Positions 9,190 to 50,667 are shown, numbered from the stretch's first letter. The stretch is 64,000 nucleotides of DNA from GCF_057098645.1 NZ_CM169472.1; one strand, 5' to 3'. Notes: a model not told the origin generated them from the sequence alone. Numbers and translations: made by a program.

Positions 9190-9276
9190 TGGTGCGAGGG
9201 GGGGGACTTGAACCCCCACGTCCGTAAGGACACTAACACCTGAAGCTAGCGCGTCTACCAATTCCGCCACCTTCGC
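9190..9276 (-). tRNA. leuV: tRNA-Leu (CAG)
   Basis: 87-nt sequence whose reverse complement is GCGAAGGTGGCGGAATTGGTAGACGCGCTAGCTTCAGGTGTTAGTGTCCTTACGGACGTGGGGGTTCAAGTCCCCCCCCTCGCACCA. Confidence 0.95.
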
Positions 9277-9310
9277 ACAGTCATCTTACTTTTTTTGATA
9301 TCGCCTCGTT

Positions 9311-9397
9311 TGGTGCGAGGGGGGGGACTTGAACCCCCACGTCCGTAAGAACACTAACACCTGAAGCTAGCGCGTCTACCAATTCCGCCACCTTCGC
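9311..9397 (-). tRNA. leuP: tRNA-Leu (CAG), middle copy with one base change in the variable arm
   Basis: Same 87-nt tRNA except gtaagaacact versus gtaaggacact on the plus strand. Confidence 0.93.
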
Positions 9398-9425
9398 CCA
9401 GTGCGAGCAATATCAACGTGGTTTT

Positions 9426-9512
9426 TGGTGCGAGGGGGGGGACTTGAACCCCCACGTCCGTAAGGACACTAACACCTGAAGCTAGCGCGTCTACCAATTC
9501 CGCCACCTTCGC
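9426..9512 (-). tRNA. leuQ: tRNA-Leu (CAG)
   Basis: Third tandem copy, identical to the first. Confidence 0.95.
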
Positions 9513-12852: not shown

Positions 12853-14091
12853 ATGGCGCTGTCTGATGCGTGGTTGCGTTCAGTCGTTGGAAAGGAACGT
12901 GATAAGGTTTTGGTTAAATCCGATCGTGATGGTCTGTCTGTCAGAGTATCACCGAAAGGTCGCGTAGTGTTCCAATATCGTTATCAATGGGCAGGGAAAG
13001 GTGAGCGCCTTGATATCGGAACTTACCCGGCAACTGGATTAAAAGAGGCCAGAGAAGAAGTTATCCGTCTCCGTGGTGAACTCGAGTCAAACCGCAATCC
13101 ACGATTAGTCAAGCAGGCTGAAAAACGAAAAGCTACTGAAGCTATGACGGTAGAGTCTGTGATCCGTGCCTGGTATGAAGCATATTGTGTAAAAAATAAA
13201 AAAGGTTCTGAACAGATACTCCGCTCGTTTGAGCTGCACCTGTTCTCTAAAATCGGGAATATCCCTCACGATGCAGCTACATTGCATGATTGGTTAGAAG
13301 TCCTGGAGCCTCTTAGCACTAAGACTCCAGCAATAGCAGACCGATTGCTAATTAACGCAAAGCAGGCCCATGTCTGGGCGTATAAGAGAAAGCTCATTGA
13401 AACTCGCCCGCTGTCGGATATCACGGGTAAAGATATGGATATCCGTAAAGGTCAGAAGAAACGGTTTCTGACACATGATGAAATTAAAATCCTTTATGCT
13501 GCGATCGATGGTTCTCGAATGGTTCCCAAATACCGGGCCTTCATTAAACTATTGCTGCATTTCGGCTGTCGTAGTTCAGAGCTGATTACTGCCAGGGTGG
13601 ATGATTTTGATTTCATTAATAAGGTATGGACTGTACCGCCAGAACGACATAAGACAGGTGATATAACAGGCGAACCGCTAAAGCGCCCCATTATTGAACC
13701 GGTTGAAGAGCTTATAAAATACGTTATCTCTATGAACAACGGTTCCGATATGCTTTTTACCAAGGAAGGAAGCAAGGAGCCAGTTGGTCGGACATCATTG
13801 CAGTCGCTGCCTTACAATTTAATGCAGTACGCATGGCGGCGTTTGGGGTATCAATTTCCTCATTGGTCTCTTCATGATTTGAGACGAACAGCACGAACAA
13901 ACTTTTCTGATCTTACTGCGCCTCATATTGCTGAAATAATGCTCGGTCATAAACTGCCAGGGGTATGGCAAGTTTATGATAAGAGCGATTATCTAGAAGA
14001 ACAGCGTAAAGCCTATCAGGCATGGTGGGATAGGGTTGATTCGATTCTTACTTACACTAATTTAGGTTCCAACAGACAGCCTATTGAATAA
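12853..14091 (+). CDS. int: Phage tyrosine integrase (P4-type, N-terminal arm-binding DUF4102-like domain)
   Basis: 412 aa; catalytic signature HDLRRTARTN ... LGHK ... VYDKSDY; adjacent to attL. Confidence 0.9.
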   Translation: MALSDAWLRSVVGKERDKVLVKSDRDGLSVRVSPKGRVVFQYRYQWAGKGERLDIGTYPATGLKEAREEVIRLRGELESNRNPRLVKQAEKRKATEAMTVESVIRAWYEAYCVKNKKGSEQILRSFELHLFSKIGNIPHDAATLHDWLEVLEPLSTKTPAIADRLLINAKQAHVWAYKRKLIETRPLSDITGKDMDIRKGQKKRFLTHDEIKILYAAIDGSRMVPKYRAFIKLLLHFGCRSSELITARVDDFDFINKVWTVPPERHKTGDITGEPLKRPIIEPVEELIKYVISMNNGSDMLFTKEGSKEPVGRTSLQSLPYNLMQYAWRRLGYQFPHWSLHDLRRTARTNFSDLTAPHIAEIMLGHKLPGVWQVYDKSDYLEEQRKAYQAWWDRVDSILTYTNLGSNRQPIE

Positions 14092-19475: not shown

Positions 19476-20070
19476 TTTGCTGCTCCTCATCATATCGACC
19501 CTGCAAGGTCGGTTGGTTTCTCCACAAAACAGAGAAGAACACCTGCGGTGGCAGCCGCCCGGATGGATTGGGTTATGAGCCCGTCGTCCGGTGATGCTCT
19601 TCTCTGTTTTGTAAAAAGAGCGGTACCAGCCGGAAGCAAGTGTACAAACTGGTACCGCCAAAGCAGTGGCTGTTGTGGTGGGCTTGTCACTCAGGCGTAT
19701 GGTCAACCTGACAATCCGGTGTCCTCAACGGGGAAAGAGTAACCCCGCCATACTTACCGCCGCGCCATTTCGCGGATTACCACAACGCTGAGAGCACTTA
19801 GCCAGTTACAGCACCACACTTTGTCGCGGCTCCATAAATGCCCTCATCGTTGCACCCTGGTCTCTTCCCAGGCGTCAAACCGAATCGCCACGCTGGTTAG
19901 GCGTCTTATCAGCATCATCATTGACTTGCACATTCCGGCTACCTGGTTTGTTTGCCCGAGCAAGGAGTGGATTGTCCCCTTTAACGTCCCCAGACCGCTA
20001 ACGACGCATGTGCCATACGCCGTGTTACAACCAAATTTTGTTTAATCTTGCCTGTGCTGTGTTTCTTTTA

Positions 20071-26459: not shown

Positions 26460-27212
26460 ATGAACCTTGAAGCCTTACCAAAATATTACTCCCCAAAATC
26501 TCCAAAACTGAGTGATGACGCACCGGCGACAGGCTCTGGTGGTTTAACAATTACGGATGTAATGGCTGCGCAGGGGATGGTGCAGTCGAAAGCACCGCTT
26601 GGGTTTGCCTTATTCCTGGCAAAAGTTGGCGTTCAGGATCCTCAGTTTGCGATTGAAGGTCTGCTCAATTACGCGATGGCACTGGATAACCCGACATTGA
26701 ACAAATTGAGTGAAGAAATCCGGTTACAGATCATCCCTTACCTTGTGAATTTTGCCTTTGCTGATTATTCCAGGTCTGCGGCAAGTAAGGCTCGCTGTGA
26801 GCATTGTGATGGTACTGGATTTCATAATGTATTGCGCGAGGTGGTGAAACACTCCAGAAGCGGGGAATCTGTTATCAAGGAAGAGTGGGTGAAGGAACTA
26901 TGTCAGCATTGTCATGGTAAGGGAGAAGTCAGCACAGCGTGCAGAGGGTGTAAGGGTAAAGGTATTGTCCTGGATGAAAAAAGAACCCGGCTTCATGGTA
27001 CGCCTGTTTATAAGATTTGTGGGCGTTGCAATGGTAACCGGTTTAGCCGTTTACCAACCACACTGGCGCGGCATCATGTCCAGAAGCTGGTACCTGCCCT
27101 GACGGATTATCAGTGGTACAAAGGATATGCAGATATCATTGATAAACTGGTTACAAAGTGCTGGCAGGAAGAAGCATATGCAGAGACACAATTGAGAAAA
27201 GTGACAAGATAA
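26460..27212 (+). CDS. Late-gene antiterminator Q (Qin QuuQ/YdfT-like, 250 aa, four CxxCxGxG zinc-finger repeats)
   Basis: CEHCDGTG, CQHCHGKG, CRGCKGKG, CGRCNGNR repeats; immediately upstream of a promoter-terminator pair and the lysis genes. Confidence 0.75.
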   Translation: MNLEALPKYYSPKSPKLSDDAPATGSGGLTITDVMAAQGMVQSKAPLGFALFLAKVGVQDPQFAIEGLLNYAMALDNPTLNKLSEEIRLQIIPYLVNFAFADYSRSAASKARCEHCDGTGFHNVLREVVKHSRSGESVIKEEWVKELCQHCHGKGEVSTACRGCKGKGIVLDEKRTRLHGTPVYKICGRCNGNRFSRLPTTLARHHVQKLVPALTDYQWYKGYADIIDKLVTKCWQEEAYAETQLRKVTR

Positions 27213-27249
27213 ATGATTTTCGCCGAAGATGGCGACATGATGCTTGCGT

Positions 27250-27290
27250 TTTTCAAAAAATATGGATAAGATTTTCCCAACGATGGGCTT
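27250..27290 (+). promoter_or_regulatory. Candidate late promoter PR' / Q-utilisation region
   Basis: TTGCGT-17 nt-TAAGAT about 40 nt upstream of the tR' hairpin; position typical for PR'. Confidence 0.35.
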
Positions 27291-27320
27291 TGTATGTCTA
27301 CCGTTGATAAGATTTAAGAA

Positions 27321-27345
27321 CCCGCCGCTGAGCGGGTTTTTTTGT
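27321..27345 (+). terminator. tR'-like intrinsic terminator downstream of Q
   Basis: aacccgccgctgagcgggttttttt hairpin plus T-tract. Confidence 0.75.
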
Positions 27346-27492
27346 GCCTGATGTCTCATGAAACTATGAAATGGATTGGTGCGTTAAACATTTTTTCTTA
27401 TTATCTTTTAGATTTTGGAGAGATGGGTAACGTCTGTATTCCAGAAACTCGATGAATATTTAATAAATTAGTTTCAATGATGCTTCTAGGTT

Positions 27493-27918
27493 ATGAGTGT
27501 AATGAAAAAGGTATTAATAGCAGCGATAGGTTTTTGTTTAGTTGGTTGTGCAGGTATGAAATTACCTGAGTATTCGCAAGTTAAAGCAAGTCCGTATTAT
27601 ACAGATTGCCGTGCGTTTGCCATGGATGTTTATAAAAATGATGGATACAGCAAAATTGCGAAAACCACTATCCTTAGCATGGATGATGTGAAGGCTAGAT
27701 ATATTGTTACAGGGTGTGTAGTTGCTATGGGGAAAAACACTGTAGAGGAAATTAAAGCTGATCTCTCTGCTAAAGGGAGTTCTTTTGGGCTTATCAGTGG
27801 TGCTTGTTCTAGTGCTGCATGTCGGGTTGATGTAGAGCAGCAAATGAACGCTTATATACTTGGTAGTTATTATGCTACAAATAAAAAATTCCCGGATAAA
27901 ATGAAAGCAGAGTTTTAA
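27493..27918 (+). CDS. Lipoprotein moron (signal peptide with lipobox LVGC, Cys-rich mature part)
   Basis: MKKVLIAAIGFCLVGCAG... (alternative start at 27502); AT-rich; bracketed by near-identical terminators. Confidence 0.65.
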   Translation: MSVMKKVLIAAIGFCLVGCAGMKLPEYSQVKASPYYTDCRAFAMDVYKNDGYSKIAKTTILSMDDVKARYIVTGCVVAMGKNTVEEIKADLSAKGSSFGLISGACSSAACRVDVEQQMNAYILGSYYATNKKFPDKMKAEF

Positions 27919-27996
27919 GCAAACCTTGTTTTCGATTATATGCCGAAGATAAATGTTAGTAACGGCATAATAAGTAAATATATAGCTGTGATAGCA

Positions 27997-28020
27997 ACCC
28001 GCCACTGAGCGGGTTTTTTG
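27997..28020 (+). terminator. Second copy of the tR'-like terminator after the lipoprotein gene
   Basis: aacccgccactgagcgggtttttt, nearly identical to 27321..27345. Confidence 0.7.
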
Positions 28021-28117
28021 TACCTGTAAACTTGGTGCAGTACAGTAAACACGCTGGTGGTCGTGAATACTGACTTTTTATCTTGCTGGCTTTTTAGACA
28101 AGAGTTATTGGTATGTC

Positions 28118-28345
28118 ATGTTAACCAGAAGGGAAAAAGACATGCTAAAACAGCAAGATATGACAGAAACCGCCGCCGCAGTCCTTCATTTCTTACCTGC
28201 TGACAAGTGGGTAACGCCACGCATGATGACGAGAACTACCGGAGTAAGCGAAGCCCAGTGCCAGTTAATACTGACTCAGTTAGTTCTGGCGGGTCTGGCG
28301 AAGGATAACGGCGGGTACGGGAATAAATTCAGACGCTGCCAGTAA
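28118..28345 (+). CDS. Hypothetical small phage protein
   Basis: 75-aa ORF between the moron and the methyltransferase. Confidence 0.4.
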   Translation: MLTRREKDMLKQQDMTETAAAVLHFLPADKWVTPRMMTRTTGVSEAQCQLILTQLVLAGLAKDNGGYGNKFRRCQ

Positions 28346-28495
28346 TGGCGGTTTCCTGCTGTGAAAATGGGCGGCTGGTGGGTGTTGGTAGCACCTGCCA
28401 GCCATTCGCTCATGCTTACTGGTCACAAGCGAACCACGGCCCACTGCTTTAGCGCAAAAGCAGAGTGAGCCTACCAGAGTTACGCTTACTGATCC

Positions 28496-29548
28496 ATGAA
28501 AAATACTGTAAAAATAAACAGTGTTGATTTAATCAACGCTGATTGCCTGCATTTTATTCAGTCCCTGCCTGATAACTCCATTGATCTGATTGTTACCGAT
28601 CCGCCGTACTTCAAAGTGAAGCCCAACGGCTGGGACAATCAGTGGAAAGGGGACGAAGATTACCTGAAGTGGCTGGACCACTGTCTGGCCCAGTTCTGGC
28701 GGGTACTGAAACCAGCCGGAAGCCTTTACCTGTTCTGTGGGCATCGCCTGGCATCTGATATTGAGATCATGATGCGTGAACGTTTCAACGTGCTTAACCA
28801 TATCATCTGGGCGAAGCCGTCCGGACGTTGGAATGGGTGTAATAAAGAAAGTCTGCGCGCATATTTTCCTGCCACAGAGCGCGTTCTGTTTGCTGAACAT
28901 TACCAGGGGCCATATCGCGGCAAAAGTGACGGCTATGCGGCAAAAGAAAGGGAACTCAAACAGCACATAATGGCACCGCTGATATCGTATTTCAGGGATG
29001 CTCGTGCCGAACTGGGTATAACGGCAAAACAAATTGCTGAAGCCACAGGTAAGAAAAATATGGTTTCCCACTGGTTTGGTGCCAGTCAGTGGCAGTTGCC
29101 GAATGAGGCTGACTATCGGAAGTTACAGGCACTGTTTTCCCGTATAGCGGCAGAGAAGTTTCAGGAACAACAACTGGAACAACCACACCACCAGCTGGTG
29201 GCATCTTATGATTCACTGAATCGCAAATATTCTGAATTGCTGGATGAGTTTAAATCTCTCCGGCGCTATTTCTCCGTATCAGTCTCCGTGCCTTATACCG
29301 ATGTCTGGATGCATAAACCCGTTCAGTTCTACCCGGGTAAACATCCGTGTGAGAAACCGGCGGATATGCTCAGGCAAATAATCAATGCCAGTAGTCGACC
29401 TGGTGATCTGGTTGCTGATTTTTTTATGGGATCCGGTTCCACAATAAAAGCAGCAATGGCGCTGGGGCGTCGGGCCTTAGGTGTTGAGCTTGAGTCAGAG
29501 CGGTTTAACCAGACAGTGAAAGAGATAAACGAGCTGGTGGGGAAATAA
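28496..29548 (+). CDS. Orphan DNA methyltransferase (N6-adenine/N4-cytosine class, DPPY motif)
   Basis: LIVTDPPYF catalytic motif and a C-terminal SAM-binding region ([13 protein letters not shown]); no adjacent restriction gene. Confidence 0.8.
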
Positions 29549-29554
29549 TCTGGT

Positions 29555-29577
29555 GGCCACGTCAGGTGGCCTTTTTA
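29555..29577 (+). terminator. Hairpin plus T-tract after the methyltransferase gene
   Basis: ggccacgtcaggtggcc followed by ttttta. Confidence 0.5.
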
Positions 29578-29615
29578 TTTCCATTACACAGCACCCGCAT
29601 CTGCGAGGTGGGGTT

Positions 29616-29831
29616 ATGAAATCCATGGATAAGTTAACAACGGGTGTCGCCTATGGCACCTCAGCAGGTAGTGCCGGTTACTGGTTTTTACAGCTGCTCG
29701 ATAAAGTCACGCCCTCACAGTGGGCAGCAATAGGTGTGCTGGGTAGCCTGGTATTTGGCCTGCTGACGTACCTGACAAACCTTTATTTCAAGATTAAAGA
29801 AGATAAGCGCAAGGCTGCGAGAGGTGAATAA
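29616..29831 (+). CDS. Pinholin, phage 21 S21-like, with dual start (MKSMDK... / MDK...)
   Basis: [71 protein letters not shown] closely matches remembered S21. Confidence 0.85.
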
Positions 29832-30328
29832 TGCCTCCATCATTACGAAAAGCAGTTGCTGCTGCTATTGGTGGCGGAGCAATTGCTATAGCATCAGTGT
29901 TAATCACTGGCCCAAGTGGTGACGATGGCCTGGAAGGTGTCAGCTACATACCATACAAAGATATCGTTGGCGTATGGACTGTATGTCACGGACACACCGG
30001 AAAAGACATCATGCTCGGTAAAACGTATACCGAAGCAGAATGCAAAGCCCTCCTGAATAAAGACCTTGCCACGGTTGCCAGACAAATTAACCCGTACATC
30101 AAAGTCGATATACCGGAAACAACGCGCGGCGCTCTTTACTCGTTCGTCTACAACGTGGGTGCTGGCAATTTCAGAACATCGACGCTTCTTCGCAAAATAA
30201 ACCAGGGCGATATCAAAGGCGCATGTGACCAGCTACGTCGCTGGATATACGCTGGCGGTAAGCAATGGAAAGGCCTGATGACTCGTCGTGAGATTGAGCG
30301 TGAAGTCTGTTTGTGGGGGCAACAATGA
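29831..30328 (+). CDS. SAR endolysin (phage 21 R21-like lysozyme with N-terminal signal-anchor-release helix)
   Basis: N-terminal Gly/Ala-rich SAR helix ([21 protein letters not shown]) followed by a lysozyme domain; start overlaps the holin stop. Confidence 0.85.
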
Positions 30329-30792
30329 GCAGAGTAACCGCGATTATCTCCGCTCTGGTTATCTGCATCATCGTCTGCCTGTCGTGGGCGGTCAATCATT
30401 ACCGTGATAACGCCATCGCCTACAAAGAACAGCGAGATAAAAAAGTCAGTGAGCTGAAGCAGGCGACCGCCACCATTACTGACATGCAGCAGCGCCAGCG
30501 TTCTGCTGATGCACTCGATGCTAAATACACGAAGGAGTTAGCTGATGCGAAAGCTGAAAATGATGCTCTTCGGCGCAAGCTTGATAATGGTGGTCGGGTG
30601 TTCGTCAAAGGAAAATGCCCTGTGCCATCCTCAGCCGAAACCTCCAGCGCCTCCGGCATGGGCAATGATGCCACCGTCGAACTCTCTCCAGTTGCTGGAC
30701 GAAACGTTCTCGGTATCCGGGACGGAATTATCCGCGACCAAACAGCACTGAGAACGCTTCAGGAATACATCAGGACGCAATGCCTTCGATGA
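30325..30792 (+). CDS. Spanin inner-membrane subunit Rz
   Basis: N-terminal TM helix then a coiled-coil periplasmic region; directly after the endolysin. Confidence 0.8.
30545..30751 (+). CDS. Spanin outer-membrane lipoprotein Rz1, embedded in Rz in the +1 frame
   Basis: [21 protein letters not shown] lipobox followed by a proline-rich segment; entirely inside the Rz ORF. Confidence 0.8.
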
Positions 30793-50067: not shown

Positions 50068-50667
50068 ATGCGTAAACTTTATGCCGCCATTTTGTCCGCA
50101 GCCATTTGTCTGGCCGTATCCGGTGCGCCTGCATGGGCGTCTGAACATCAGTCCACGCTGAGCGCGGGGTATCTTCATGCCCGGACGAACGTTCCCGGCG
50201 GTGATGATCTGAACGGGATTAACGTGAAATACCGTTATGAGTTTACGGACACACTGGGGATGGTGACGTCGTTCAGCTATGCAGGAGACAAGAATCGCCA
50301 GATTACCCGTTACAGCGATACCCGCTGGCATGAAGATTCCATTCGTAACCGCTGGTTCAGCGTAATGGCGGGGCCGTCTGTGCGCGTGAATGAATGGTTC
50401 AGCGCGTATGCGATGGCGGGTGTGGCTTACAGCCGTGTGTCGACTTTCTCCGGGGATTATCTCCGCGTAACTGACAACAAGGGGAAAAAGCACGATGTGC
50501 TGACCGGAAGTGATGACGGTCGCCACAGCAACACGTCTCTGGCGTGGGGAGCTGGCGTGCAGTTTAACCCGACCGAATCCGTGGCCATTGATGTCGCTTA
50601 TGAAGGCTCCGGCAGTGGTGACTGGCGCACTGACGGTTTCATCGTGGGTGTCGGTTATAAATTCTGA
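50068..50667 (+). CDS. lom: Lom outer-membrane beta-barrel protein (Ail/Lom family moron)
   Basis: Signal peptide and beta-barrel ending ...GVGYKF; position after J as in lambda. Confidence 0.88.

Follow-up and report, generated by a model that had tools for sequence, protein, structure and literature searches.

A lipoprotein gene bracketed by two copies of a tR'-type terminator, a probable moron at the head of the late operon of a lambdoid prophage

The 64,000-nucleotide stretch of DNA that we analyzed (NZ_CM169472.1 of assembly GCF_057098645.1; hereafter, the window) carries a lambda-like E. coli prophage in which the gene of a 141-aa lipoprotein is the first gene of the late operon and is enclosed by two copies of that operon's terminator. 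We regard this arrangement as a genuine moron, that is, a unit of roughly 677 bp (a leader with a probable promoter, the lipoprotein gene, a 3' untranslated region, and a terminator) located immediately past tR', and we assign this whole explanation a probability of about 0.7. The moron is of an ordinary kind, with an uncharacterized lipoprotein as its cargo in a known hot spot, and is present, unnamed, in hundreds of genomes; current concepts are left unchanged, morons downstream of pR' and phage lipoproteins both being familiar. Two aspects are mildly new, namely, the delineation of a conserved and nearly always phage-borne lipoprotein family without structural relatives and the repeated enclosure of this one cargo, in unrelated backbones, by terminator repeats that are specific to each locality.

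Late promoter and terminator copies

Upstream of the cassette lies the gene of the late-gene antiterminator Q (26460..27212, + strand; 250 aa), which matches phrog_127 (E 2.9e-108) and lambda Q (PDB 7ubm/4mo1; E 2.8e-37). Its product is 98% identical to the Q protein of an Stx2c-converting phage, and the allele is presumably the one named 'Q21' in STEC typing papers. An insert at residues ~121 to 159, about 40 residues in length, adds further CxxCxGxG zinc-finger repeats to this protein, and these give DnaJ-type matches.

The 100 nt following Q align with lambda pR', with the -10 region and CAACGATGGG kept in register. They include a pR'-type late promoter (27244..27287, +) composed of a -35 hexamer TTGCGT (27244-27249), a 17-nt spacer, and a -10 hexamer TAAGAT (27267-27272), with a putative transcription start near A27279 and a sigma-dependent pause element, AACGATGGG, predicted at 27279-27287 from the likeness to lambda. 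Published lambda work places in this conserved sequence the sigma-dependent pause element that Q requires for loading, and we infer the function of the promoter elements in the window by analogy.

The first terminator copy (27319..27350, +) comprises the hairpin AACCCGCCGCTGAGCGGGTT, a run of seven T residues (T7), and GTGCCTG. It is an intrinsic terminator located closely downstream of a pR' with a pause element, after a Q gene, as expected for a terminator of the tR' type, and it would end a predicted pR' leader RNA of ~65 nt. In lambda as well, the 6S leader RNA ends at an intrinsic terminator, tR', which shortly follows a constitutive pR' with an AACGAT pause element and is overridden by Q; different from lambda, where the leader measures 194 nt, the leader is much shorter here, and the terminator occurs twice, with a gene in between.

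The second copy (27996..28026, +) comprises AACCCGCCACTGAGCGGGTT, T6, and GTACCTG; its hairpin and U-run at 27996-28021, behind the lipoprotein gene, constitute the cassette's own downstream terminator. The core repeats, AACCCGCCGCTGAGCGGGTTTTTT at 27319-27342 and AACCCGCCACTGAGCGGGTTTTTT at 27996-28019, are identical at 23 of 24 positions and spaced by 677 nt. When one 1-nt indel is allowed, the repeat lengthens to 27319-27350 and 27996-28026, with the form AACCCGCC[G/A]CTGAGCGGG-T7/T6-GT[G/A]CCTG, and 29 of 31 positions are identical over the stem, the loop, the T-run, and the GTRCCTG tail. Each copy folds into a GC-rich hairpin with a U-run behind it (-14.1 and -12.0 kcal/mol; z -3.1 and -2.2, respectively), and a consensus terminator scan reported copy 2, not copy 1. 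Thus, the pair of near-identical hairpin terminators claimed in the preliminary description is real, and the positions given there (27321 and 27997) are off by 1 to 2 nt.

Beyond copy 2, the late operon extends over 28118..30792 (+), in agreement with the annotation of homologous prophages. Its first ORF encodes 75 aa (28118-28345) and is followed by the genes of a DNA methyltransferase (28496-29548), the holin (29553-29831), the endolysin (29831-30328), and Rz/Rz1 (30313-30792 and 30545-30751), all on the + strand.

Between the two copies, an interior of 650 bp (27346-27995) holds a single conserved CDS. This is preceded by an AT-rich leader (27346..27492, +) with one or more candidate sigma-70 promoters and a second conserved leader block, ATATTTAATAA, near 27458-27468, and is followed by a 3' untranslated region (27919..27995, +), which is missing from the empty sites described below and is part of the 650-bp unit that is always found whole. 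The AT richness noticed earlier for the gene is borne out by a GC content of 35.7% for the interior versus 46.7% for Q, 48.1% for the methylase gene, and 50.6% for the whole window. In Salmonella and Hafnia, the cassette has a 5' edge homologous to the tail that follows the window's left copy, T7 GTGCCTGATGTCTCATGAAAC (T7+GTGCCTGA...); the tail behind the right copy belongs to the phage backbone. No terminal inverted repeats were found at the cassette; the flanking repeats, which vary from 23 to 80 nt among the backbones and are made up of the local terminator, are not those of a transposable element or an integron cassette. An Rfam search of 27150-28500 gave only sub-threshold leader-like matches, which fall on the terminators.

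Both copies are present in 41 E. coli-type loci, and each of these shows the same arrangement as the window. Among them, the left copy is more polymorphic than the right one: G, A, and C all occur as its loop base, and stem-weakening changes are seen in some left copies (AACCTGCC, GCGGT); the right copy is the same in all 41 loci, bar one stem change in a single locus. This variability may reflect a relaxed constraint on the left copy once it is backed by a second terminator or, alternatively, a tuning of the leak into the lipoprotein gene. In phage Ayreon and in Stx2c phages, both hairpins are identical, and the loop G of the window's left copy is, as judged from the compared loci, a later polymorphism.

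Filled and empty sites

The 650-bp interior occurs in 214 of 5426 complete E. coli genomes (about 4%), with a coverage of 96 to 100% and an identity of 97.4 to 100%, and the cassette is full length in all but one among the matches listed. It is also found in 24 phage records, among which are fifteen Stx2c-converting phages, phiSTEC1575-Stx2k, mEp460, Ayreon, and PhiR47_1.

A synthetic empty junction, obtained by joining position 27342 directly to 28020, matches many E. coli genomes uninterruptedly (794/794 nt, 98.4 to 98.9% identity), and a 97-nt junction query identified empty sites in 186 genomes. At the base level, the empty site consists of the left flank, one terminator, and the right flank; the single terminator has the loop, the T6 run, and the GTACCTG tail of the right-hand copy, to which it is identical. 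The comparison with related prophages lacking the cassette, which had been proposed as a check, thus shows one terminator at the junction, and the flanking direct repeats are the exact presence/absence boundaries of the cassette in the E. coli backbone. In O157:H7 FRIK944 and in three IMG/VR contigs, a different late module begins right after the T-run of copy 2, and it follows that this copy is a mosaic junction as well.

Since the cassette is present or absent between collinear genomes with sharp boundaries, deviates in its base composition, and ends with its own terminator, it fits the usual definition of a moron. Furthermore, the lambda-family Q, the alignment with pR', and the empty sites agree with the earlier proposal of an insertion at the Q-dependent late promoter site. 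In these respects, and in having a probable promoter and residing in the interval between Q and the lysis genes, the cassette resembles the stx-type morons of lambdoid phages (the concept of Juhala and Hendrix), and the region 3' of PR' has already been termed the 'moron insertion site' (PMC4104026). However, different from stx in that site, the cassette sits directly on tR', upstream of stx and the tRNAs, is flanked on either side by the terminator itself as a direct repeat, and has an uncharacterized lipoprotein as its cargo. In the Stx2k phage, stx is found about 1.5 kb downstream of the cassette, past a regulator gene and three tRNAs, and the two coexist within one Q-to-lysis interval in Stx2k and Stx2c phages. 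The position had been likened to that occupied by stx, which is correct for the interval but not for the exact site.

The lipoprotein and its family

The lipoprotein ORF (27493..27918, +; 141 aa; phrog_4748, a family of unknown function) is present as previously claimed, with its lipobox LVGC. The product begins with MSVMKKVLIAAIGFCLVGC followed by AG, and its signal peptide and lipobox (27493-27549, +; Cys19 codon at 27547-27549) show a basic n-region (K5K6), an 11-residue hydrophobic core (VLIAAIGFCLV), and then the lipobox L-V-G-C19, which agrees with the signature [LVI][ASTVI][GAS]C. In an alignment of 29 homologues, G18 and C19 are at least 90% conserved. The preliminary description counted six cysteines besides that of the lipobox; there are in fact six in total (residues 15, 19, 39, 75, 105, and 110), one in the signal peptide, one in the lipobox, and four in the mature protein of ~123 aa. 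The last four (Cys39, Cys75, Cys105, and Cys110) are invariant across the 29 aligned homologues, which suggests the presence of two disulfides. The C-terminal Phe (residue 141) is also invariant in this alignment, mostly as ...(A/P)EF, and this conserved aromatic residue could be a ligand of a PDZ-domain protease or a packing residue.

Since the homologues begin with M-(x)-KK, and a Shine-Dalgarno-like AGGT is aligned across genera ~7 to 10 nt ahead of this start, the ATG at 27502 (MKKVLIAA...) is more likely to be the start of the gene than that at 27493; the mature lipoprotein is unchanged whichever of the two is used. By the published Lol avoidance rule, the residue at position +2, which is Ala and not Asp, should direct the lipoprotein to the outer membrane.

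For the window gene compared with its homologues from Salmonella and from a Buttiauxella phage-plasmid, and for these compared with each other (55 to 76% protein identity), dN/dS in the + frame is 0.08 to 0.22, which indicates strong purifying selection on the gene. A profile search of 5.8 billion proteins yielded 34 clusters of homologues, whose named sources all belong to Enterobacterales and to no other order (Escherichia, Salmonella, Citrobacter, Klebsiella, Hafnia, Edwardsiella, Enterobacter, Serratia, and Buttiauxella) and which are labeled 'hypothetical' or 'lipoprotein' throughout.

The AlphaFold (AF2) model built from 29 sequences is confident (pLDDT 87.3, pTM 0.81) and presents a helical bundle with helices at residues 27-31, 36-48, 65-79, 84-103, and 108-132 and a short hairpin. 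The homology and structure search suggested in the preliminary description gave no informative structural neighbor in the fold comparison of this model, no Pfam match for the window protein or for any of the 29 homologues, no match in NCBIfam or in a PDB sequence search, and no family (0 at E up to 1) among the anti-phage defense models of PADLOC-DB 2.0; the only PHROGs matches were phrog_4748 and one weak family, likewise of unknown function. No study of this lipoprotein gene was found when the literature was searched for the protein accession, the PHROG number, and the names of the phages.

Homologues in other backbones

In Salmonella, the gene is found behind a different Q (DUF1133/PF06530 type), with the same hairpin upstream, a diverged terminator downstream, and then a truncated methylase gene. 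In this prophage (locus L006, 5560-5810), only the 3' third of the DNA methyltransferase is left after the second terminator; the 5' part of that gene has been lost by deletion, together with the 75-aa ORF. The Hafnia copy is located behind a third Q family (PF06323), and the Enterobacter copy is located inside the tail operon, between the tape-measure and minor-tail (gpM) genes. In Salmonella enterica subsp. diarizonae and in a related locus (L008), the gene is part of the early region and adjoins a VapBC pair.

The copies of Klebsiella, Citrobacter, Buttiauxella, and Cronobacter are carried on phage-plasmid-like replicons of ~100 to 112 kb, where they are located between a DNA polymerase III alpha/DUF7740 pair and gp32. 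In this lineage, the lipoprotein gene is always followed, ~10 nt later, by a second lipoprotein gene (L007, 5446-5745; L014, 4430-4729; L069, 3437-3736), which encodes 99 aa with a lipobox LSGC and belongs to phrog_7666, of unknown function, suggesting a two-lipoprotein operon.

Terminators end the lipoprotein homologues in other genomic contexts, too. The occurrence of the gene behind three Q families, in a tail operon, in an early region, and in phage-plasmids indicates that the lipoprotein unit is autonomous and mobile. Moreover, the Serratia homologue is chromosomal, is not associated with a phage, and adjoins an EmrAB-type efflux operon; it follows that the family need not be phage specific in its function. 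A lysis-related role of the lipoprotein was considered and set aside, since the gene also occurs far from lysis genes, and a position that is not tied to these genes argues against such a function.

The prophage of Hafnia alvei (L016, 5615-7750) contains an HTH/ParE toxin-antitoxin pair and, on the opposite strand, a full-length flagellin gene between the cassette and the holin gene; a phage-borne flagellin in the moron zone between Q and the lysis genes is unusual.

Transcription of the cassette

The leader contains a candidate promoter with the hexamers TTGGTG (27376-27381) and TATTAT (27399-27404), separated by 17 nt. It matches the consensus at 8 of 12 positions, which is below the threshold of our consensus scan, and it has counterparts at a conserved position in Salmonella (TTGGTA-18-TATCAT) and Hafnia (CTGGTG-18-TATGAT). 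On this basis, it is probable that the lipoprotein gene has its own promoter.

The anatomy of the locus and the lambda precedent lead us to propose the following model. In the lysogen, pR' would fire constitutively and polymerase would halt at copy 1, releasing only the short leader RNA, and transcripts of the lipoprotein gene would arise at its own weak, AT-rich promoter, by leakage past copy 1, or by both routes. Copy 2 would halt the transcription of the lipoprotein gene ahead of the methylase, holin, endolysin, and spanin genes and would thus serve as insulation. After induction, Q-modified polymerase would pass both copies, so that the lipoprotein gene would be expressed first among the late genes; the strong expression on induction expected in the preliminary description would follow from this architecture. 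The precursor would then be lipidated at Cys19, and the mature protein would be a compact helical bundle, probably with two disulfides. The cassette anatomy shows why a moron upstream of lysis genes needs a terminator behind it.

A different explanation, which we consider improbable though worth weighing, is that the gene is devoid of its own promoter and purely late, so that the lipoprotein appears only once Q has acted as antiterminator and has its role in the lytic cycle. In this case, it might hide the receptor on the dying cell and on debris to save progeny, in line with the second role described for T5 Llp, or it might modify the envelope before lysis. Although the gene is the first one after pR'/tR', the candidate promoter is weak, and the Enterobacter copy is found inside a tail operon, a purely late gene would have no use for a terminator behind it, the promoter-like hexamers recur in several genera, and the gene also occurs in early regions and in the replication regions of phage-plasmids. 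Moreover, half of the otherwise near-identical prophages are without the cassette, which indicates that the lipoprotein gene is dispensable for lytic growth. This evaluation concerns the existence of a promoter proper to the gene and is separate from the ranking of functions given below. We prefer the model given above.

Possible functions of the lipoprotein

The envelope roles of the lipoprotein are neither supported nor ruled out by any database or fold search. We would guess that superinfection exclusion ranks first among the single roles and a Bor-like contribution to host fitness ranks next, with the remaining roles, including a function confined to the lytic cycle, together slightly outweighing these two. 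Sequence homology with Bor/Iss, Cor, or Llp was not found in PHROGs, Pfam (29 members), or NCBIfam, nor did the fold comparison show a shared fold.

Lambda Bor (and its homologue Iss) is an outer-membrane lipoprotein that is encoded by the prophage and confers serum resistance, and lambda bor is located downstream of Rz on the opposite strand. Like Bor, the lipoprotein of the window is a small lipoprotein encoded by a moron of a lambdoid prophage near the lysis genes and predicted for the outer membrane; different from Bor/Iss, it has no detectable sequence similarity to them, and its modeled fold is helical.

T5 Llp and Cor of phi80/N15/HK022 are lipoproteins that block FhuA and thereby cause superinfection exclusion, and the T5 Llp papers present receptor blocking by phage lipoproteins that reside on the inner leaflet of the outer membrane as an established mechanism. 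The protein studied here resembles them in being a phage-encoded lipoprotein, probably with disulfides, that is expected at the inner leaflet of the outer membrane, although it has no sequence or fold match to them. In addition, llp and cor adjoin receptor-binding or tail genes, whereas the lipoprotein gene follows Q, with only the Enterobacter copy in a tail operon, and no gene of a receptor-binding protein adjoins it in the window. By analogy with Llp and Cor, the lipoprotein may bind an outer-membrane protein from its periplasmic side and thereby exclude superinfecting phages, to the advantage of the lysogen; we rate this as the most likely single function, albeit as a tentative proposal that we hold to be less than an even chance.

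Less probable still is a contribution of the lipoprotein to host fitness or virulence, after the manner of Bor/Iss/TraT, in which it would act in serum resistance, adhesion, or stress tolerance and not against phages. Its resemblance to lambda Bor as a prophage-encoded outer-membrane lipoprotein is weakened by the lack of a sequence relation to Bor or to any named family; likewise, the cassette is common in pathogenic lineages (Stx2c/Stx2k phages, O157:H7, and IHE3034, the last of which we take to be an ExPEC/neonatal-meningitis isolate), but it is also carried by Ayreon, which was isolated on K-12 from pond water, and by environmental strains. The position of the chromosomal Serratia copy beside an efflux operon is a further point in favor of this role.

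The cassette is present in about one in 25 complete E. coli genomes, including Stx2c- and Stx2k-converting phages; in these phages, the promoter that drives toxin expression transcribes the lipoprotein gene before any other. If the lipoprotein excludes phages or alters the cell surface, it would have an effect on phage susceptibility, on the host range available to phage therapy, and possibly on fitness in the host.

Recurrent repeats and mobility of the cassette

Terminator repeats bracket the cassette in three further backbones; in two of these, the repeats are near-identical and specific to the locality. The Hafnia prophage has an 80-nt direct repeat around the gene, with copies that are 94% identical and lie 830 nt apart; this repeat comprises a different terminator (AAACCCGCCTTTTGAGCGGGTTTT) together with about 40 nt of leader sequence from that locus. 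A 28-nt repeat, AACCCGCCAAATGGCGGGTTCTTTTATG, surrounds the two-lipoprotein unit in five IMG/VR phage-plasmid contigs and is perfect in four of the five contigs and 93% identical in the fifth. A synthetic junction of the Cronobacter type gave no one-piece match among plasmids and hence no empty site for the phage-plasmid backbone, so that mobility at the terminators is directly documented for the E. coli backbone only.

It is possible to hypothesize that the flanking direct repeats are substrates for the precise loss of the cassette, which may also be re-inserted at terminators by short-homology recombination between repeats. A circular cassette with one terminator would integrate by a single crossover inside the resident terminator, and its loop-out would restore the empty site; we infer that the bracketing is the pattern expected from such an integration, and it hints at a simple recombination route for the shuffling of morons. 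Bracketing that arose by local duplication followed by insertion, or by gene conversion between the copies, is a possible alternative.

Two bolder readings, which we deem unlikely, are that the helical lipoproteins are a new superinfection-exclusion or defense family and that the cassette moves by means of terminators that act as portable recombination sites. According to the first reading, the lipoprotein, anchored in the outer membrane and stabilized by disulfides, could serve phages of Enterobacterales in blocking an envelope receptor or a DNA-entry route. The second would explain the locally specific repeats around the same gene in E. coli, Hafnia, and the phage-plasmids.

That the two terminators do not derive from a duplication, the moron having brought along a terminator of a common type (AACCCGC stem) whose likeness to tR' is convergent, is very improbable and already contradicted, as far as the sequences compared go: CCCGCC/GGCGGG stems do occur in several unrelated terminators among the loci examined, but the identity extends from the stem through the loop and the T-run to the GTRCCTG tail, the hairpins are identical in many phages, exactly one copy is left at the junction of the empty sites, and the Hafnia repeat includes a stretch of local leader. 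Finally, an untranslated chance ORF or an assembly artifact, the two grounds for rejection named in the preliminary description, is contradicted to the point of being negligible, since, despite the AT-rich DNA, the weak Shine-Dalgarno sequence, and a 147-aa ORF on the opposite strand of the lipoprotein gene, the dN/dS values in the + frame, the conserved lipobox and cysteines, and the confident AF2 model speak for a translated gene, and the same arrangement in the 214 complete genomes and 24 phage records, together with the annotation of both terminators in the Ayreon record, excludes an artifact.

Other features of the prophage and its surroundings

The published 'sRNA-17' was considered as a product of the cassette region and rejected, because its primer maps to window positions 19620-19645, in the early region. 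It is an ArcA-modulated sRNA of E. coli K1 RS218, said to be located in an mEp460-like prophage, and its authors dropped hypothetical genes before calling intergenic regions (PMC7719688), for which reason the cassette region had seemed a candidate. The segment 19620-19645 (+) and about 170 nt downstream of it, in the early region of the prophage studied here, match exactly the 5' end and the primer of 'sRNA-17', so that the sRNA locus is present here and has no relation to the cassette.

The flanking chromosome contains three tandem tRNA-Leu(CAG) genes (9190-9512, -). The prophage encodes a tyrosine-type integrase (12853-14091, +) and, by the tail-fiber region, a homologue of the Lom outer-membrane protein (50068-50667, +); given this homologue, the prophage carries at least one other envelope moron.
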